64,000 nt of DNA from Eledone cirrhosa (lineage: Eukaryota): NCBI GenBank assembly GCA_964016885.1, contig OZ024742.1, positions 272,490,001 through 272,554,000 of the forward strand. Reading direction: 5' to 3'. The notes below the pieces were generated by a model. The model made no database searches. It saw only the letters and a list, made by a program, of their open reading frames with translations, and was not told the DNA's origin. This document shows positions 1,690 to 64,000 of the stretch, in pieces. How positions within the stretch are numbered: the first letter of the stretch is position 1; every line of letters starts with the position of its first letter. Both the position numbers and the translations under genes were made by a program.

Positions 1690-1857
1690 CTCAGATTTAC
1701 TTTTTCAGTTTCAGAAGATCCCGTTAAGGGGGAAAGCAGCGATTCTTTACTTAAACTTTAATCTTATATTTTAATAAATATTGGCTCTACGGTTCCTATA
1801 TATTTGATATATATTTATCCTTATCGAGCCTTTCTGGGATTTTAGTCTTCAAATTTA

Positions 1858-1989: not shown

Positions 1990-4900
1990 TTTGTCAAAAA
2001 ATATATTGTTTCGTAGATTAAACCCCACGCTGAATTGTCAGCTGAGCGGTAATCTCAATTTTCGCCCCGCCGCGGCGAAAATGTTATTAAAAAATGTTTC
2101 CAAAGATTTAATATTTTTGCTATCGATAATCGCTAGCTTAGTAGAAGGAACGCTAATGGATGCTGACGAAGAAAGTAGAGAGAGAAAGGCAGAGAGTAAT
2201 GTTGCCGTAAATTCTGCCTACATAGGTGTCATTATGGAGACACATAGTGACAACAAAGTTTTGTTTTGCCAAGAAGCCGAAAAATGCAACTTACAAAATG
2301 GACCATACAGCTTACAACAGACATAAAAACACAAAAAATGAAACAATTGACACAACTACAAACGGAAAAACCGACAACTACACAACAAGATCAACAACAC
2401 CAAAAAGATAACATTTTTACAGAAACAGTCACAAATATTAATAATCTCAAACTCCGCATGTATTGGCGTCACCATGGAAGCCGATAAGAACAACAACAAT
2501 GAAAACAAGATTGAACCACACAGTGTACAACAGACACCAAAAACAACAGAATATAAAATGATTGAAACAACTACAAACGGAAAGACCGACAACCACAACA
2601 ACAACAATAACAACACCAACAAAATAACTTTTCCAGAAACATTCATCAAGAAACACAAGAGTTCAAGGATCTCGATATCTACAATGCGAGACAGATGCTC
2701 TCTGAAGCAAAGGAGTTTATCACTTTCGGTGAAAACGGTGGGTTTCAAATAAACCCACCCCCAGAAATTCGTCTTGATACATTTCGAAGAACAGTTACCT
2801 TCAGAACTGTTTCAAATGAAACAAAATTGAAGCAACATTGAAGGAGATATTGCCAAACATTGACTTTATGCAGAGGGCCAAATAGTACGGGAGTTTTTCG
2901 GTACTCCTCAAAAGCGAGGCCCTTGCACAAATATACTCACTGACACCAATACTGTCAAAAAAATACACCTTTTTCCCTACATACCTGGGAAAAAGGACAC
3001 AGAAAATCAGAATTGCAAACATACCACCAGATATTAATATTTGGTCGATATTGGCAGGATTTTTAGAGGAAGGAAAATACACCATTCTCTCAATCAAAAG
3101 GTCAACCAGACACACATGGTCTGGTACACATTTGGAGATTCTGGTGCAAATGAGCGCAGAGATAATCTCCAAAGTACCCGAAAAAGTGCTGGTGGACAAC
3201 AACAGCAACATAAGCAATTTGGTTGAAGGAAGAAAACCACACTGATTTCGATGTAACAGCACAGCACATCTAAAGGCCTCCTGCCCTTTACAGACACATT
3301 TACCCCCCCCCCCCACACACACACACACATACTCTTACCAACTGTTACATACTGTTACCAACACCAACTACAAAACAAGCAACACTACAACAACAACACA
3401 CAAAACAAGCAAACGCACCAAAACAAACACCCACTCAATCAACAACAGCAAGAAAAACAAACAACTACCCTGAAGAATACAGTCCAACCCCATCACACTC
3501 CATCCAACACTGCCACAAACACACACAGACAAACCATCACCACACCACACACCCCTACCGCAAGCTCCTGATGACGAATCATCGTCAGACGAGGTTATTT
3601 CTTCATCTCCAAGTGAAGATGAAGGACAGCATCGAAAATTAAAAACCCCAAAAAGGTACCACAAAGCCACGAAAACAAAGATCAGCAATACCAACACACA
3701 AACACCGACACAAACAACAACACAAAAACGCGACAATCAACCCCCCCCCCTCACACACACACATACACTACCAGCAAAACAAACACCAACACAACCCCAA
3801 GCACAAGCACCCACCATAAAAAGAAAACTCCCGGACGAACAACAAACTAAGAAAACATAACAAAAACACAAATGACAGTACGCATATACCAACACAAACA
3901 ACAAGAGTTTGATGGAGGTCATATCCAGAAACCCCAAGGTGGAGACGGAGTGCGAAACTTTCTTTAAAGCAGAATCGTCTCCATACCTCAAGCTAATATT
4001 GATTTCGATGGAAAGATATAGCGAACTAAAAACAAACTTTTCGCAGGACGTGGACAACCCCTGTCAAAAACCCATAAACCGCGTCCTGTTAATATGTTTC
4101 CCCACCCACACAACACCCGCACCAGCACCCAAATCGAGATTGAACAACACGATTTCCAGGAAACGAAAAGGTAACTGCACCTTTTCGTCCGTTTTCGCAA
4201 ACTCTTCTCCACCAACATAACTAATTTACGAGTTGAAAGCCTGAATATGCGTAGCCTAGGGATGCCCTGGAAACAAGGCCAACATTTAAACGATCTAGGT
4301 TACACGGTATGGATGTGATAGCCATCACCGAGTCCAGGATCCACAACAGGAAGCAACTAACTCCCATCTTCAATGACTTTGAGATCTACGCATCTCTATG
4401 TCAGCCAGGAGGTGGAGGGGGAGTGGCTATCATGTTTCGGAAAAACCTGTACATTCGAAGTACAGCAAGTACACTTGGACCTGGAGGGTAGAATGGTAGT
4501 CCTGAACAGTGTTGGAGGTGGAGCTTTCAGACTGGTGGCCGTTTATGCCCCGACTGGGCAATTGCGGGCCAGACATCTTTAAGCGTCTAGAGTATTTTCT
4601 TGGAACGCCTCGCTCCTCGCTTTTAGTGGGGGACTGGAATGGAATCCTAGAGGCATGATGAGACTATGTAGGATAATTTTCGAGTAGAGTGGGGTGCAAC
4701 AGCCTCATAAATGTAATCAGTCAATTCCAACTGGCCGATAGGTATCGACTATATTTCCCGACTGCACTGCAGTGGACGTGGACAAATCCCAGCGGGGCAT
4801 CTAGATCGTATTTAGACAGGTTCTTTTTTAGAGAGAGAGAGACAAGAAGATGCTAAGCTGTTCACAAATGCACATCGTTGCCTATTTAGACCACAAACTA

Positions 4901-7860
4901 GTTATCTGCATAGCCAACCGTGATAGAATACATAGATAAGGACCCGGACACTGGAAGCTGAACGTGTCGCTATCGACACGTAAAGCCTACAGTGAACGGA
5001 TAAGTAGAGTAGTTGAGCAACAACTGACGGGAGCCATTGTCAAGAACAAATGGTGGTACTCCCTTAAGTAAGCAATTAGAGTAGAGTCGATAGACATTAG
5101 TAGAGAGTTAGCCTCAGAGAGAAACAAAAAAGAAACGGAACTAGAAGCCTATTTAAATGAGGCGCTTAGGAGTAGCAACGTAGCTAGAGTGCTAGCAACG
5201 AGAACGGCGCTGGACCGGTTCTTCGACGCGAAACACGAAAGCTTCGTGGTCAGAAGCAACTCAGGTGCTCTTGGAAATGAGGGAGCGAAAACTGCTAGCT
5301 CGGCCCGAGTGGCAGAGGCGAAAAGTGGCAATAAGTCCGCGAATCGGTCTTTGAAAGACTAAAACGGGCGCGTGCTACTTGACCCCAAGCGGATGTGCGC
5401 GGTCTTCCGCGGTACTTTGCGCAACTGTTCGGGCAGAGAGGCAGTGCGTCGAATGGGGAAATGGACTTAAGTTCATACCTCGAAGGCCTGCCGCGTCTCT
5501 TGGACATGGAAGGCAAGTTCTGCGAAAGACCGATCACATCCACTGAAATACGGGACGCTCTGGGCCGCTACGAGAAACGCAAATCACCCGCTCTAGATGG
5601 TCTACCCTATGAATTTACGTAGGCATGCTGGACTGGTTCTCTGGCTTCCTCGAGGCTGTCTACTGCAACTGGCAGTAGAACGGGAGAATTCCCAGTTCTG
5701 CAGACGGGGGCGTAGTAACGCTGATCAGGAAAAACGAGAACAAGGGAGACAAACTAAGCAACTTGAGGCCCATAACTCTGCTCAACACAGAGTTAAAGAT
5801 TTTGGCCAAGGTGTTGGCAACGAGATTGGCGCTTGTCGTCGAGAACCTGGTATGGAAAGCGCAAATGAGTGCAATCCCGACCTGGTCCATAGACGACAAC
5901 CTCCACCTCATGCGATATATCATAGAGAGGGTGGGGTGTAAATGCTGCGTTTGTGGGGCTCTGGTCAATTTAGATCAATCTAAGGCGTTCGATAGAGTTG
6001 ACCATCGATACTTGGAAGGGGTTCTCAAGGCGGCCGGTTTCGGACCCGTCTTCAGAGGCTGGATTGCCGCAATGTACACCAGCATCTGCTCGATGGTCAA
6101 GGTGGGTGAACGGCTACCTATCGGAGTCGTTCGCAATCACTCGTTCCATCCGACAGGGATGCCCTCTCTCCTCCATTCTGTAAGTACTGACTCTAGGGCC
6201 ACTGCTGCCGAAGTTGGAGCTGTTGCAAGGCATTCCTTTGGAACCGGGACACCGGAGAGCGGCGTCGGCTTATCGCGGCGACGTGACGGTAATGGTGTCG
6301 GAAGCCTCCGAAATCGGCAACTTACTGCAGAAATACGAAAGTCTCACAGGAGCAAACTTGAACCCGAACAAGTCTGTCGGTTTGCAACTCGGAACGTGGA
6401 GAGGCACACCAATGACGTCAGACAGCATCGTCGGAATCTGGACGGTCGCAGAGGCGAAAATGCTCGGGGTCTAGTTGGGTCCGGATCTCCATGTGAAGAA
6501 AAACTGGAGCGAGGTCACGGCCAAAGTATTTGCGGTGACCCAGAAGTGGGCAGAGTGCAAACTATCCTTGAAAGTTCGAGTGGAGTTGGCGAACACTTTC
6601 ATAGCGTCCGTCATCTACTGCCGCTTGACCGTCGTGCCTTGTCGCGGTGAACCCCTCACCTTCTTTAGAAGAAGAAGGCTCCTTCCTTTGGAAGAAGCAG
6701 GCTCCACTGGTGAGGAGTTCCGTCTGCTGTCAGCACCCTTCCAACGGAGGGCTGGGAATGCGGTAGCCGATGATGCGCAAGCATGCGCTCAGGCTGCGGC
6801 ATCTACAGGTATTCCTCACCAACCCCCAACCGGTGTGGGAAACCGTTTGTAAGACAGGCCATCCCGCAACTTGCCTCGCAGACGGAGCTGCAGTCATGGG
6901 TCAAGCAGAGACCGAAGAAGATGGGCGCCTGGCACATTGAATGCGCCAGGTGCTCACAGTCCTCTGTCAAGCGGGCACGGCAATCAGTGGAGATTCCACT
7001 TCGACATTCTATAGAGGGTTAGTACGTCACAAGGGCGACGATGTGCTCGGGGAGACTCTAGGCGTCGAAGACGACGAACTCACAAGTCTGTTTGGTAGGA
7101 CTATCCGCCAGGGACCTATGGACAACTTCCAGAGGTTCCTGGCCTGGCAGTTCAACCGAGGAGCTCGACCAGTTCGTGACAAGATCTTCAGGCACGGACG
7201 CTCCGGCAGGGATCCTTCCAGGAGGAGGTGTCCAAGATGCGCGCAGGACATTGAAACCATCCTGCACGAAATTGTACACTGCCCGGGCGTTACCGACCTG
7301 TGGAACTACGCCGAACAACTGCTGTCGCGTATGGGGCAAATTCAGTTGACTGCCGAGTCCATACTATAGATCAAACCGCCAGTTTCAAAAACGAAAGATA
7401 GGCGGTTTTCCTCTGTATAGTGGCTATGGTGAAAGTGGTTATATGTTGGACGAGATTGAGAGGACTGAGGACAGATGCCTTTCTCTCCGGACAGCAACTC
7501 ATTCTCTTCTTTAGATACCATTTAGAAGGAGAATCAGAGTGGAGAGAGGGGCACTGCACCACAGTAAATTTACTGAAAAGTGGGTGAATGTGGCAAAAAT
7601 GACCCTAGTGATTAGACATGTAGGTTGAAGAAGAGAGCAAAAGGAAGAAAGGAGCACTTGCACAACACGCTCCTGAAGTTGAGTATTGTTCTATCGAATG
7701 GGGTATTAAACAACCCATTTGTGGCGCCTCACTCTATTGGGGATTTAGATTGTTATAATCGTTTGTTTTATATTTTTTTACACGATTGTATGTAAAATCC
7801 CCGGCATGTCTTTCTTTCGTCCCCTTTTCTTGTGCGCCCTTGTGGCTAATAAAGAAATCT
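1990..7860 (+). mobile_element. L1/Tx1-clade non-LTR retrotransposon, near full length, decayed
   Basis: ORF1 remnant with a zinc knuckle (~2630-3300). ORF2 has APE motifs (DVIAITE, FRLVAVYAP, GDWN, SYLDRF, DHKLV), RT motifs (KSPALDGLPYEF, RPITLLNTELKILAK, LDQSKAFDRVDH, SIRQGCPLS) and a C-terminal CPRC..ETILH..HC. AATAAA at ~7848 precedes (TA)n. Confidence 0.9.
4220..7620 (+). pseudogene. Tx1/L1 ORF2 (APE endonuclease, reverse transcriptase, CCHC), frameshifted
   Basis: Consecutive ORF fragments 4309-4582, 5395-5622, 5763-6183, 6214-6852 and 6941-7369 carry the motifs in the expected order. Confidence 0.9.
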
Positions 7861-26188: not shown

Positions 26189-26853
26189 TAAAGAATCATC
26201 TGTGCTCTACCAACACGCTAAGATGGAACACAGGGGTAGATTAGAGAGCATAGCAATAAAAATAGAATCCACGCACAGAAAAGACGCAATGTTTAGGCAA
26301 ATTACTGAGGCAGTAAGCATAAAAGAATTAAAACCAAAATTAAATAGAAAATATGAGTGGAACAGCAACATCACAACTTACAATTAAGGACAAAATGAAA
26401 ACACACACACAGATAGAACAAACAACTTACAATTGAAAACACACACAGGACAAAATGAAAACACACACACACACATAGAACAAACAACCAACCAACAATA
26501 AATAAATAAACAAATAGAAAAATGAACACAAACACACACAGACACCCGGATGTGGCACATGCGCAAACTGAGCACACAACACACACACAGAAACAAAATG
26601 GCGTAGGATAAAAAAAGAAAAGGCACAGAAACGAAGAAAGGAATCCCCAGTCACTGAAGAGGTCACAGAGTGTGTGACGAAAGGACTATGACTATATATA
26701 TAAACAACTATCTGGTTGTGGAACCAACCAACCAACCAGAAATTTATAAGTTTGTAGATTTGTAAATTCATAAATTTATAAATATATAATAAATTGAAGT
26801 GAAAGCAACTGGTGCGTGTGTTTCTTATTGGCAACATGACCCTCCCAAAGTAT

Positions 26854-29158: not shown

Positions 29159-29196
29159 AAAAATAAACCGATAGTGGCCGATAGTGCTTCTTGTAG

Positions 29197-29250
29197 CTTT
29201 ACTTGCCCTGATGAGTCCTTAATAGGACGAAACATTGTTGGCTAATAAAG
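29197..29250 (+). ncRNA. Minimal type I hammerhead ribozyme with canonical core, in a solo (TA)n-flanked island (29155-29395)
   Basis: CTTTActtGCC CTGATGA GTCC ttaata GGAC GAA AC att GT T GGC taa TAAAG. Confidence 0.85.
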
Positions 29251-29391
29251 ACTTTTGATGTATTGAAGGCTTCTTTGGTTTATAATTTATAATTCTTCGG
29301 CTCTGTTTAATTACATTGAGCTATATCTTATACTGTCATTTCTATAATATGAAGAGGGTGTTTAACTCCAACACACTCTAGTATTTTAATT

Positions 29392-33059: not shown

Positions 33060-34118
33060 ATATATATATGTGTGTGTGTATGAACGTGTGTGTGTGGATG
33101 TATGGGAATGTGTGTAAGTGTATATGTATGCACGTGTATTATATATTTTTTTATTTGATTGTGGATTTATGATATACATATATATATATATATACACAAA
33201 TGGAAGTTCAGCATAATCGAACCTCTGGCAGCAGCTATGCTAACGAATGCAATCGGAATGTGCAGCTAAGCACTCAATATGGTACTTCACCTTAGAGTAA
33301 TAACATAACGTTTAGACAGCTTTGCAAATTGAAGATTACAATCGGTAAGCCAGCAGCAGGGACAAAAGCAACGAGAAAACTGACTCAGGAAAATATGACA
33401 AACCTGGATCATTGCGTCGTTATTATACAATATCTCCGCTAGATTTCTGTAAATCCGAAATCAACAAAATCCAATTGCAGGGAATGCAAGTTATTGGTTT
33501 GGGATGATCGAACAAAGGGTTCACTTTATCAACAGGTTTCCGTTCAGTGCCGCTTGCGGGTGTGAGTTATAGCAGTAAGAAATCTGGCGATCACGTGGTT
33601 TTCCCAAAATGAGGTAACCCCCGGTCTTTGGCGGTCGAAATTCATGCTTATGTGTACGTACATGTATATGCATGTTGTTTGTGTTTTTGTGTAAGCACGT
33701 GTTTGTACGTATACAGAGGTGTATATGTATATATTTAATTGTTATTACTTTTTTGATTTTAATAACCTCTGTCATTTTCGCTGACCTGTTTTATTTACAT
33801 TATTCTTCACTACGAAGCCGAAAATTATTCGGTTTCCTAAATAGAATATACTCCTAATGACTCCCTTTATACAATAAACGTACTTTTGTCTTTGCGCATA
33901 ATTGTCCTCCACACTCCCCATAACGACGTATTAGCTTCGCTTTTTTCCGTTCATTGAAAGGGAACGTATTCACGAACCAAAGTATCGTCTTCCTGTTTTC
34001 CTTTGTTTGCAACGTTTTTCGAAATATTTACTTCTGCGTTCACAGATTGTTTTTTTTTAGTTTCAGAAGATCCCGTTAAGGCTGAAAGCAGCGATTCTGT
34101 GCTTAAACTCTCTGTTAA

Positions 34119-35580: not shown

Positions 35581-36511
<931 letters not shown>

Positions 36512-40267: not shown

Positions 40268-40298
<31 letters not shown>

Positions 40299-40309
40299 GT
40301 AAGAATAAT

Positions 40310-41885
40310 ACATTTGAAGACTAAAATCCAAAGAGGCCTCGATAAGGATAAATATATATCAAATATATAAGAACCGTAGAGCAAATATTTATTAAAATAA
40401 CAGATTAAAGTTTAAACAAAGAATCGCTGCTTTCACCCTTAACGGGATCTTCTGAAACTAACAAACTCAATCTATAAACGCATAACTGGATATTTCAAAA
40501 AACGTTGCAACCGGAGGAAGACAGGAAGACGATACTTTGGTTCGTGGAAACGTTCGCTGGCTAAGAACGGGAAAAAACGAATATAATACGTCATTAATAG
40601 GAGCGGTGAAAAACAATACGCGCAAAGACAGAACCACGTTTATAGTATAATAGAGGTCATAGACTAATGTTCTCTTAGGTGGTGCATAGAGACGTTCTCT
40701 GGCGATGAACGAAAAAAACGAAGATAAAACGTCATATGTGGAGCGTGGAGAACAATAGCACGCACAGACAAAACCACGTAAATGGTATAGCAGAAGTCGT
40801 AGACTAAATTCTAACTAGGAGACCGAATGAATTTCCGCTACGGAGTTAAGAACAAAGTAAATAAATACAATACAGAAGTAATAGAAATAAATAAATACAT
40901 ACACGCGAACAGAAACGTACATACACAAGCATACGCAAAAATTTACCATAGGTAAACAAAACCACGCACATATAAATATGTGTGTGTGTGTAAGCGTGTA
41001 TACAAATAAATAAATAATTATATAAACGTATATAAATAAATAAATACGTATATAACAAGCGCACACACATACCTACATGTAAATACACGAATGTTCGGAG
41101 ACGTAAGTCAACCAAAACATGAAGTACACATATACACATGCCCTACATACGTACGAACCTGCATACTCACACAGACGCAAAACTCCCCTATACACATAGT
41201 CGAACCATATGTACCAGAATATATAAAAAAATTTTACGCCATAACAATCAAATATACGTACGAGAAGGTATACGTACCTTCACAAAACATACGGATAATA
41301 TATACTTACCTATGCAAATAAGTAAAGGTATAAACAAAACATATAATTAGCTCCCACATCGAGACGTAAAATATCCAAGTATTGATCGTACTATCCGTTA
41401 GGGTATAACGTGGGGCTGTAATACAGGAAAGTTTTGTGCAATTTATGTTTACAAGCCGAAATTGCCTCAGATTTTTTGTTTAAGATGTGGTCTGTGGCGT
41501 AGAGTATTTCCAGGGCCTCAGCGGCGCAGAGGTCACATGGTCTTTTATTTCCGTTATACGATCTAGTCCTCACTAGGATCTCCCAGTGTAGCTTATATTT
41601 GGTGTGGTTGTCTTTTAGACTCCAGATATAAGCTGAAAGTGACGTCATATTCCTTCTTAGAGGGTAACGAAAAGAATGGGTATGCATGTAAAGACGCTGC
41701 TTGAATCTATTGGCGGTTAACCCTATGTAGGCCCTACGGGACGTGGGTGTTACAACCTTACATTTGTAGACAATGTTATCCAGTTCTGCGTTTACAGATT
41801 GACTTTGTTAGTTTCAGAAGATCCCGTTAAGGGTGAAAGCAGCGATTCTGTGCTTAAACTTTAATCTGTTATTTTAATAAATATG
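40310..41885 (-). mobile_element. PLE family A: GIY-YIG remnant, 3' UTR with ~140-bp internal duplication, pLTR/HHR (40409-40459), and an inverted pLTR at the 5' truncation (41790-41885)
   Basis: ORF 41391-41687 (MHTHSFRY..SLSAYIWSLKDNHTKYKLHWEIL..CDLCAAEA) with upstream IVYKCKVVT..YIGLTANRFKQRLY. Confidence 0.85.
41810..41860 (+). ncRNA. Hammerhead-like fold with variant core CAGAAGA (best copies 41810-41860 and 34059-34109)
   Basis: AGTTT CAGAAGA T CCC gttaa GGG T GAA AGCA gcgattctg TGCT T AAACT; outer CAGATT/AATCTG extends stem I. Confidence 0.65.
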
Positions 41886-47029: not shown

Positions 47030-49110
<2,081 letters not shown>

Positions 49111-52020: not shown

Positions 52021-53732
52021 ACTTTATCTTACTCAATACTAACTGAAATGTATTCCAGAAACTGTGCATACTCATACAGATTTAGAAGTGTAGTGGCAAT
52101 AATTAAATAAATTAATCTGGAATATCATTACGGTCTGAGTTCAAATCCCATCTAGGTTACCTTTGTCTTTCATCCTTATGGGGTCGATAAAATAAAGTAC
52201 CAGTAATGCACCTGGTAATTGGTGGCCTTGTGCCAAATGTAGAAACAATTATTAATATATATATATATATATTAATAATTGTTTATATATATATATATAT
52301 ATATGACACACACAGAAACAAAATGGCGTAGTACAGAACAAAGGAGAGACACAAAAACAAAGAAAAGAATCCCCAGTCACTGAAGAGGTCACAGAATGTG
52401 TGACGAAAGAACCTTGACGATATATAAACAACTATCTGGTTGTGGAACCAACCAACCAACCAGAAATTTATAAATTCCTAAATTTATAAATTTATGATAA
52501 TAAATTGAAGTGAAAGAATCTGGTGCGTGTGTTTCTTATTGGCAACATGACCCTCCCAAAGTATAACAATATCGGTTTCTACACACGATTTCAGATAAAG
52601 AATCTTGCTAAACAAATTCAGAAACGAAATATATATATATTAAAATAACATATTAAATGTTAAGCAAAGAATTGGTACTTTCACCCTTAACGGGAACTTC
52701 TGAAATTAAAAATAATCTGTGAACGCAGAAGTAATTATTTCGAATAAGGTTGCAACTGAAGGATATCGGACGACGATACTCTTGTTCGTTAAGACGTTCC
52801 TTGGCAATGATCGAAAAAAAGCGAAGATAATACGTCGTTATGTGGAACGTTGAGAACAATTACACGTAAAGACAAAAGAATGTTTATGGTATAAAGGAAG
52901 TCGTAGACTAATATTCTATTGAGGAAACCGAATGATTCTCGGCTACAGAGATAAGAATGTAGCCCTCTTTGGATTTTAGTCTTCAGATTTGTACATGGGG
53001 AGAGAGGAAAACAGTTTTATCTAGATACATATAATGGAAAATAAGGTCAATCTCCATGCTAACCATTTCATTATGTATTAACTATTAGGTTCATTCTACA
53101 CTGGTAAAATTATAACTTATTTCACTATGTGAAGAATTTCAAAAATGCCGTTGATTTATTTATATGATAAATAATATCGTCTCTGTACATCTCGGATACG
53201 TTTCTTTATACGAAAGATTTCGATTATGTTAAATACTTCATTCCTTAAAATTGTAAGACATCTTGACAAGGATAATAATTTCATCAACAATGTCTATTCA
53301 ATGGCATTCTCTTAGGGAAAGTTAGTGCGTTTTGTTTACAAATGTTTTCTATCAAATAAATATATGCTATACTGTACTTCATTCGAAACTGTATAGAACG
53401 GTATTGCATATTTTTTTTTTACATGTCACATTATATATTGTTTCAATAAATATCATCATTCGGTAAATATTACTAACATATTTGGTACATTTATGAAGTT
53501 TGTCCACTTACTTGAGAAATGCTGAATATCAAATTATAAAAATATTGGTGCACAGATACAATTCATCATATCACATGTAAGGAGTCACTGAAAATCTGAA
53601 GTGCTTTGAAGAATATATATTTAACAGGTTTACTTATTTATCAGGGGAATTAATCAAGAAACAAACTGGTCACGTTTAACACATATATAAACAAATAAAA
53701 CAGGCAGCCATAAATATTCACACACACACACC

Positions 53733-60099: not shown

Positions 60100-61020
60100 T
60101 GACCCCTGTTCTGCTAGAAACTGTAACAACAAGACTTGTAATTGTAGGACCCCTAACATCTGTCCACTTCAGGGTTACTGCCTAAGTAGTAATGTGATAT
60201 ATAAGTGCACAGTCATCACAGAAAATAGTCCTAAATCTTACATACGGGCTACTTCTAATGAATTCAAAACTAGATTTAGAACCTATCTCCACTCGTTTAG
60301 AAATAGAAAACTCAAGTTCTCAACCTCTCTCTCTAACTATATCACTGAACTAATACAATCTAACACTAGGTACACAACCAAATGGAATATAATCGACAGA
60401 GCAACGTCTTGTAACTTTAAGCATAAATGTTACTTATACTTGATGGAAGCATATTATAACTTGTGCTCCCCCATACACTTATTAATAATAGTGCTGAAAC
60501 TGTAATAAATTGCGAACATAGGCTTACCTACTCTTTCTCTAACAGGATCGTTTACCCAATACACATCTTATTTTCAACCCATTTTCTCTCCCCTCAACCC
60601 TAAAATATAGCCCCTATTCGCTACGTCTTATAAATTAGCCAGATCATCTAAATCATTGCGGCTCATAATTAGTTGCTTGATTGGGGCTTCAAACTATAGC
60701 CCACAACACACCACATAACATCCACACTATCAATGTTACTTAACTTGCCCTGTTATAATTAATAAATATCTTCCCTTTTTTTTCTAACCATAATTGCTTC
60801 AATTAGATTATTATGCCCCATTGTAACCGTCATTTTAAATTTACAAATCATACCTAACTGAAACCTATCGTTCTAAGTGATTCACTCAGGCGTATCTTTG
60901 TCTCTCCTGTAATGGGATATTTATTCCAATAATGGTAATTGTCGTTCGTTGCAGTATAATTTGGACTAACTTCCAACAACATCAATATAAACAATTATTC
61001 TTCTCTGAAGATTCTATGTA
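60100..61020 (+). mobile_element. Penelope-like GIY-YIG fragment and 3' UTR
   Basis: IYKCTVITENSPKSYIRATSNEFKTRFRTYLHSFRNRKLKFSTSLSNYI..WNII (60194-60505). Confidence 0.8.
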
Positions 61021-62599: not shown

Positions 62600-63340
62600 A
62601 ATAATAAATGTGAAGACTAAAATCCAAAAAGGGCTCGATAAGTATAAATATATATCAGATGTATAAGAACCGTAGAGCAAATATTTATTATAATACAGAT
62701 TAAAGTTTAAGTAAAGAATCGCTGCTTTTACGCTTAACGGGATCTTCTGAAACTAAAAAAAGTTATTCTGTGAACGCAGAATTAAATATTTCTAAAAATG
62801 TTGCAACCGAAGGAAGACAGGAAGAAAATACTTTGGTTTGTGGAAACGTTACCTGGCAAAGAACGGAAAAAAACGAAGATAATACGTCATTAAACGAAGA
62901 TAATACGTCAAAGACAAAACCACGTTTATGATAGAAATGAAGTCGTAGACTAATATTCTATTAAGTGGTTTATGGGGACGTTCTCTGGCAATGAACGTTA
63001 AACACGAAGATAATACGTCATTATGTGGAGCGTAGAGAACAATTACACGCAAATACAAAACCACGTAAATGGTATAACTGAAGTCGTAGACTAAAATTCT
63101 ATTTAGGAAACCGAATGATTCTCGGCTTCAGAGTTAAGAATAAAGTAAATAAAATACATAGGTAATTGAAATTAAATATATACATACACGCATCCATATA
63201 CGTGCATACACAAGCATACGCGAAAATACTCGCCATGGGTATGCAAATACAAGCACATACACAAAAAAACACGCACGCATACACATAACCCACGCGACGC
63301 CTCTACCCGCACACATACGAAGTATACACCAAATACACAT
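62600..63340 (-). mobile_element. PLE family A pLTR/3' UTR copy (others at 33660-34120 +, 39590-39910 +, 52650-52990 -, 63840-64000 -)
   Basis: Aligns with 40310-40970; HHR-like fold at 62704-62754. Confidence 0.8.
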
Positions 63341-64000
63341 AAATATATATATAAAAAAATATATCATATTGAGTTATAATCTCGAAATAGTTTATAACTC
63401 AATAATTATATTCTCGGCTCCATACTTAGAGCTAATTTTAGACCCATAAAACTGGCTGCTATTTTTAGCGGCACGAGTATGAGGCGATTTAGGCGCTGTG
63501 ACATGTGCGTTTGAACAACACATATTTCTCAGTCGTCTTAAGTATTTTGATGTGAAAGGTACGAATTTCCTGGATATCCGCAGAAGAGCAGAGGGAAGTG
63601 ACTTTCACTTAATTGTTGCGAAACAAATGTAGAATTTGTCTGGGTATCACGGCCATTGCCAATATAGGTTTGTTATTTTTATTGATTTTTAAATCGAGAC
63701 AGGCAAACCATATTATTTTCAATTAGTATTTTTCAACCTAGCTAACTTGGTCATTTGCAATTCGAACATATGTATACTTTAATCAGTGTTCATCCCTCTC
63801 ATATATTAATTTGTAAAAATATATATATATGTGTGTGTGTATACATAATTAAATAAACTTATATAAATATACACACATAAATACGTATATAACGCTCGCA
63901 CACACATACCTACATGTAAAAACACATATTTTCGCGGACGTACGTCATCCCAAACACGAAGTACACATATACACACACCCTACATACGTACGATCCCGTA

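Follow-up and report, generated by a model that had tools for sequence, protein, structure and literature searches.

Penelope-like elements (PLEs) of the Hydra clade, as set out by Craig et al. (2021; PMC8557442), share a C-terminal endonuclease, the motifs RWR, DKT and CxCx5C, and (TA)n targets, and carry a type I hammerhead ribozyme near the 3' end, with U·U flanking stem II in 14 of the 25 listed families and U17 in 10 of the 25. The family analyzed here is alike in all of these features. It differs in the ribozyme core: U4 is present in all 25 listed families, and the descriptor required it, whereas the present family has an A at this position (A4). Its stem III is also longer than in those families, and non-palindromic. 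The accessible supplement of that study holds no match to the motif or to the N-terminus of the A4 family; its Hydra-1_Obim is a different family with a canonical core.

The minimal hammerheads of PLEs (Cervera and De la Pena, 2014, PMC4209133) lie in pseudo-LTRs, as does ours, and have low activity in vitro. Their stem III is minimal and palindromic (dimer type), whereas that of the A4 family is of the monomer type, and the U3-A8 variant described there is a compensated pair, whereas A4 is an uncompensated change. For the Poseidon PLE of the anole (Frangione et al., 2024, PMC11167929), hammerhead mutants leave insertion in vitro unaffected, the uncut RNA is the main template, and no reads end at the cut site, which we count as a likeness. 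Two internal reverse-transcription starts define the tail of the anole element, and resemble the ends at +75 and +163 described below. The anole element differs in having a canonical core, whose cleavage has been shown to be protein-assisted, and its ORF starts within the ribozyme, whereas that of the A4 family starts 204 nt after +1.

Natural departures from the hammerhead core have been compiled by Perreault et al. (2011, PMC3088659), according to whom U4 contacts the A6-N7 phosphate, U10.1-U11.1 occurs naturally and is tolerated better than any other mismatch, and a viroid variant with U4C, though weak in vitro, still supports infection. These variants resemble ours in being single core changes, with low but detectable activity; they are rare isolates, and the text does not name U4A, whereas here the change is fixed in more than 20,000 copies. 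In a pairwise scan of a type III hammerhead (PMC9901934), single and double mutants of the CUGA region had low activity, except for a C3-G8 swap. We found no natural U4A hammerhead in print, although subscription papers, figures, or the supplementary files to Perreault 2011, Cervera 2014 and Roberts 2023 may list one; the accessible parts of PMC11014351, PMC7151607, PMC3376415, PMC2377424 and bioRxiv 10.64898/2026.07.22.740005 contain no such case.

Our starting point was a window, that is, the whole stretch of 64,000 nucleotides from Eledone cirrhosa. It holds a core variant that is real, fixed throughout the family and seemingly unreported, in an element of a known kind. From sequence comparisons we favor, with a probability of roughly 0.6, the reading that an active Hydra-clade element has changed U4 to A family-wide, and that its ribozyme, likely weakened or dead, persists as the likely first 51 bases of the capped RNA.

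A hammerhead motif with A at core position 4

The motif has the sequence and the coordinates that the preliminary description gave it. Unit positions are counted from the first base of stem I (+1).

41810-41860, plus strand: type I hammerhead with A4 (41816) in place of U, U·U flanking a 3-bp stem II, and a predicted cut at 41855/41856 (sequence, folding, descriptor); equals unit +1 to +51
41794-41869, plus strand: extended stem I, in which, past a 7-nt U-rich bulge, a distal helix of 9 bp joins 41794-41802 to 41861-41869 (folding, alignment)

Stem I pairs 41810-41814 with 41856-41860, and C3, A4, G5, A6, A7, G8 and A9 occupy 41815-41821. Stem II lies between U 41822 and U 41834, followed by G12 to A15.1 (41835-41838) and stem III, which in the majority form of the family has 5 bp and a 7-nt loop. 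The predicted cut at the C-U-U site corresponds to unit +46/+47. The distal helix of stem I, whose 5' strand lies upstream of +1, had been overlooked. The motif thus has three stems around the core, an open stem I and a U16.1-H17 site.

When one core mismatch is allowed, a descriptor search of the 1,164 nt of the unit that do not code returns this site and no other, and 300 dinucleotide shuffles yield none; position and build match the published Hydra hammerheads. Both observations speak against chance resemblance or decay after insertion, a reading that we regard as hardly tenable, even though an Rfam scan did not detect a hammerhead at 41810-41860 and the folding z-scores of the motif are unremarkable.

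In A4 constructs of a young unit, the hammerhead fold lies 2-5 kcal/mol above the predicted minimum. With A4, a core misfold is the minimum-energy structure, at -8.8 versus -5.5 kcal/mol (-7.8 in a natural U4 copy); A4 is predicted to add one pair with U11.1-GAAA to this misfold, worth about 1 kcal/mol. Canonical sister families fold no better under the same model, and the predicted occupancy of the hammerhead fold, 0.0009 for the A4 motif, exceeds that of five of eight comparison motifs, so that misfolding alone does not single out the A4 family.

The U·U pair, presented in the preliminary description as a non-canonical novelty, turned out to be typical of the clade and a naturally tolerated mismatch (PMC8557442; PMC3088659). 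It also occurs in three canonical-core sister families of the same genome (24 of 28, 7 of 7 and 7 of 7 motifs). Half of the claimed oddity was already known, and U4A is the one departure left.

Further hammerheads of other families are present in the window. Canonical cores were found at 26649-26695, 52375-52420 and 29192-29262, the last of which matches Rfam HH9 (E=0.0054). Canonical hammerheads at 35962 and 36310 (plus strand), 348 bp apart, with an inverted copy at 35681 (minus strand), form a retrozyme-like arrangement. Four hammerhead clusters with the known U3-A8 core pair were seen at loci L226, L084, L068 and L135.

The element and its arrangement in the window

Motifs and alignment place the family in the Hydra clade. 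One locus holds three hammerheads head to tail at a spacing of 3,254 bp, i.e. full-length tandem units, and another holds a natural copy with a 709-aa open frame, from which we conclude that the family is autonomous and recently active; young copies differ by about 2% from their own consensus. The 709-aa ORF encodes a reverse transcriptase followed by a C-terminal GIY-YIG domain, has no N-terminal endonuclease, and is colinear with published Hydra alignments. The GIY-YIG assignment is by motif and by alignment by eye, Pfam giving no match for the ORF/GIY-YIG region. Loci matching the flank likewise code for a reverse transcriptase, then a CxCx5C linker and a GIY-YIG-like region. RWR, DKT and the linker motif CNCRNRADC (CxCx5C) fit the published definition of the clade, and pseudo-LTRs in tandem and inverted arrangement, ends at +75 and +163, inversions and (TA)n targets are all present. 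The leader runs for 204 nt without an AUG; the first ATG, at +205, opens the ORF. Non-LTR retrozymes have non-coding tandem units of 150-400 nt, and this class was rejected for the A4 family, since its unit is coding and measures 3,254 bp.

Twenty-six relatives, 34-47% identical, came out of a protein search. Within about 2 Mb of local sequence, short or decayed pieces aside, we saw no family of about 50-70% identity, and a pattern scan of metagenomes for the motif gave 0 matches.

Around the motif, the element is arranged as follows.

41777-41884, plus strand: inverted pseudo-LTR stub (unit 3222-3254, then +1 to +75), terminated by a (TA)n tract (unit alignment)
41391-41780, minus strand: ORF remnant truncated at its 5' end (last part of the linker, GIY-YIG region), with 96% identity to a young copy (translated comparison)
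40460-41390, minus strand: 3' untranslated region of the element, about 930 nt (unit alignment)
40409-40459, minus strand: A4 hammerhead in sense orientation downstream of the ORF, core at 40454 (copy search)
40297-40408, minus strand: leader/tail beyond the hammerhead, up to unit +163, with a (TA)n tract at its end (unit alignment)

On the minus strand, the element thus extends from 41779 past the hammerhead at 40454 to +163, and the stub at 41777-41884 is its inverted partner at the truncation point, ending at +75. The preliminary description had placed the motif downstream of GIY-YIG. This is correct insofar as a PLE hammerhead is found at its usual place, which is the copy at 40454; it does not hold for the copy at 41815, which belongs to the inverted stub, the ORF remnant being on the minus strand. 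The description of the family as the most abundant PLE was not borne out either: in 464 kb around the window, a strict descriptor gives similar counts for at least two other hammerhead families.

Other Hydra-like ORF remnants in the window, at 25-58% identity, lie at 23239-21818, 15522-14622, 44285-43821, 60137-60451, 9972-9249, 18868-18302, 21513-20639 and 17095-16470. Pieces of the A4-family pseudo-LTR also occur inside other composite repeats with shared flanks (L034, L037, L038, L039, L040, L043, L050 and L071), and one of these repeats accounts for a recurrent junction that lies 3 bases into the core.

Position 4 across copies and the constraint on the leader

All seven copies named for the window have A4 (7/7), as had been stated. 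Besides the two already listed, they are:

1707-1757, plus strand: decayed copy, A4, broken stems (window copy comparison)
34059-34109, plus strand: copy of the older subfamily, A4 (window copy comparison)
47302-47330, plus strand: copy ended after GAAA at an inversion junction, A4 (window copy comparison)
52657-52707, minus strand: decayed older copy, A4, broken stems (window copy comparison)
62704-62754, minus strand: older copy, A4, private G12A (window copy comparison)

A 26-mer with at most 3 mismatches finds six of the seven, and nothing in 100 shuffles. Folding is retained in only some of them; the stems are broken in the copies at 52702 and 1712.

The claim that A4 is the state of the family rather than decay was confirmed on the genome scale. 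Exact 23-mer counts in the 3.0-Gb genome are 20,692 for A, 89 for T and 138 for C/G, so the genome-wide consensus is not CTGAAGA, and T at position 4 is at the level of ordinary decay. A4 makes up 99% of exact-match copies, and these counts refute a reading by chance or decay. Profile searches of 1.264 Mb (the window, its flanks and five other regions, one of which was picked for known matches) gave 36 matches, 29 with A, 1 with T and 6 not covering position 4. Among 91 aligned copies, C3, G5, A6, G8, A9, G12, A13, A14 and A15.1-U16.1 are the majority state, whereas the U4 of the uridine turn is absent, with A in 88 copies and T in 3, in a set that includes loci picked for T. With A4 fixed, the family lacks the canonical hammerhead core.

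The rare T4 copies (loci L061-L080) are junction copies in 9 of 20 cases, as against 3 of 30 for A4 copies (p=0.007), and this enrichment falls at +1 and at inversion junctions. Since A4 is the center of a quasi-palindrome, template switching may flip position 4, and it is a possible origin of the U4-to-A change as well.

A second, unrelated A4 hammerhead was seen at 63573-63650 (plus strand, core 63581), with an 8-bp stem I and a stable predicted fold. It has one exact copy genome-wide, its build resembles a U4 motif in locus L204, and its A4 is probably a private change. In locus L102 (minus strand, near 6128), one of four motifs of another family, with A·A flanking stem II, has A4 and the other three U4. 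Contigs from another study (run X6) span 40413-40473, and among the rows listed there is no position-4 variant.

Does the rest of the motif look like that of a working ribozyme? Among the 91 copies, shared subfamily changes fall on 33 of 298 upstream positions and 2 of 7 bulge positions, and on 0 of 69 core and paired positions (p=7e-4), which looks like selection on the fold. Ten of eleven core bases are kept, and all three stems and the distal part of stem I are intact. Together with the restriction of nearby changes to the bulge, this fits selection on the fold and counts against a dead ribozyme. It is therefore possible, though not what we would expect, that A4 is tolerated in a working natural variant in which a contact between extended stem I and loop II, or the protein of the element, holds the core. 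The downstream copy would then cleave slowly or on cue, and the upstream copy, which would lack the distal stem if transcription starts at +1, would stay uncut. Natural core variants can work, as the viroid U4C change, the tolerance for U·U and the protein-dependent ribozyme of the anole PLE illustrate.

Other observations argue against this alternative. Old and young consensus sequences differ at 0 of 162 positions between +1 and +163, of which 111 lie outside the ribozyme, as compared with 67 of 580 and 22 of 302 in the 3' UTR and 55 of 1,198 in the ORF. The whole 163-nt leader is thus frozen, ribozyme and non-ribozyme tail alike. Compensatory changes are absent everywhere, and the stems show no covariation, either among the 91 copies or between old and young consensus, zero subfamily changes at paired positions leaving nothing able to covary. 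The comparison reaches back over a modest depth of time (about 9% at third codon positions). Taken together, the frozen non-ribozyme positions, the lack of covariation and the modest depth mean that conservation does not show catalysis. The nine upstream positions of the distal stem are too few, alone, to show constraint, and in the type III scan no second mutation rescued the CUGA mutants (PMC9901934).

Copy ends at the start of stem I and at the predicted cut

Junctions were counted as copies whose upstream bases disagree with the element. By this measure, +1 is the first base of 1,261 copies. In the first 100 of those listed, the preceding base is G in 53, A in 34 and C in 13 (G versus C, p=7e-7); T is excluded here by the junction pattern itself. 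Upstream element sequence is lacking in 29 of 30 inspected +1 loci, which mostly span +1 to +75 or +1 to +163, most of them within inversions. The extra G is also found on three of four inverted partners that reach +1. In 33 of the 53 cases an A stands before it, and some of these Gs may therefore stem from slippage that repeated the first two bases. Because untemplated 5' Gs of L1 and SVA insertions have been ascribed to a copied cap (PMC3287187), +1 is likely the capped start.

41808-41813, plus strand: likely transcription start (A at 41810) in TTAGTT, as suggested by 1,261 copies starting here, often with an extra G

We take TTAGTT to be initiator-like. Visual inspection revealed no clear downstream promoter element at +28 to +32, and a second start at +7 was rejected, as G is not in excess there by eye.

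The predicted cut behaves differently from +1. Copy ends number 137 at the cut, as against 113 at -3, 103 at +3 (a control that includes many small deletions) and 57 at -8; normalized, the values are 361, 298, 328 and 181, as compared with 2,727 at +1. An apparent excess (137 versus 57) disappeared once the flanking controls were added, which speaks against a working variant. The comparison has no positive control, cut RNA might be degraded or left uncopied, and canonical-core sister families show no clear cluster at the cut site either, in samples as small as 8 to 36 matches. For cleavage it can be said that 28 of 30 cut-site loci are real junctions by eye. The preliminary description had left two options, an active variant and a catalytically weak fold; the second fits the genomic footprints better than the first, because ends are not in excess at the cut and compensatory changes are absent.

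A third explanation is that A4 is kept as a 3' splice acceptor (TTTCAG|A) behind the U-rich tract, in which case splicing would remove half of the ribozyme. The sequence does read as a pyrimidine tract followed by CAG, the Drosophila Penelope intron ends at helix I, and 574 copies have a junction at about +7 to +9, with AG preceding in many. Many of these junctions, however, fit inversions at a short self-complementary word or the composite repeat, a start at +1 would leave the upstream copy without an intron, and a common upstream exon was not seen, the genome being a weak test since PLE copies usually keep their introns. We therefore consider a role in splicing improbable.

Together, these data are best described by a model in which the ribozyme is weak or dead while the element kept spreading. 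RNA polymerase II would start at +1 within the pseudo-LTR, and the reverse transcriptase of the element would start at +75 or +163, copy back through the uncut hammerhead and read the cap as G at +1. The ends at +75 and +163 fit two internal reverse-transcription starts, as in the anole PLE, and copies are likely made from uncut RNA, so that the element would spread with little or no self-cutting. A cut at +46/+47 in the upstream copy would uncap the mRNA; a cut in the downstream copy would separate the ORF from the start sites at +75 and +163, both of which are 3' of the cut. A founder mutation that slowed cutting would therefore cost little, and may even help. The change to A4 is expected to cost the uridine-turn contact and to favor a misfold in which U-U-U-C-A4 pairs with U11.1-G12-A13-A14-A15.1. 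That the rest of the motif is intact would be explained by constraint on the whole leader, probably as promoter and recognition site of the reverse transcriptase.

The start at +1 also bears on the alternative of a working ribozyme. The 5' strand of the distal helix is upstream of +1, so this helix can form only in the read-through copy. The U4A hammerhead could accordingly act as a positional switch, which is off in the capped 5' copy and, in the read-through copy, gains the distal stem, perhaps helped by protein, and cuts slowly. We consider such a switch doubtful. If it existed, a working hammerhead would for the first time be seen with a natural purine at the uridine-turn position, and its on/off design would be built in, set by the position of the transcription start.

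The case bears on why PLEs carry hammerheads at all, as cleavage proved dispensable in one in vitro study and clades that lack canonical hammerheads are successful. The A4 family is a natural experiment: in a family that is young, autonomous and present in more than 20,000 copies, a change at a near-invariant core base has become fixed, next to canonical sisters in the same genome. If its motif is dead, high-copy success was reached without cleavage, in a clade said always to have canonical hammerheads. If the motif cuts, both the core consensus and the search descriptors requiring CUGA have been drawn too narrowly. Through its cap-like G at +1, the family also offers a route to PLE transcription starts from genome sequence alone.

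The layout with a start at stem I may be wider than the A4 family. In the 26654 family (window 26649) and in Hydra-1/-2_Ajap (PMC8557442 File S2), too, the 5' strand of stem I overlaps with an initiator-like YYAGTY. Copies of another family cluster about 40 nt upstream of their own core.
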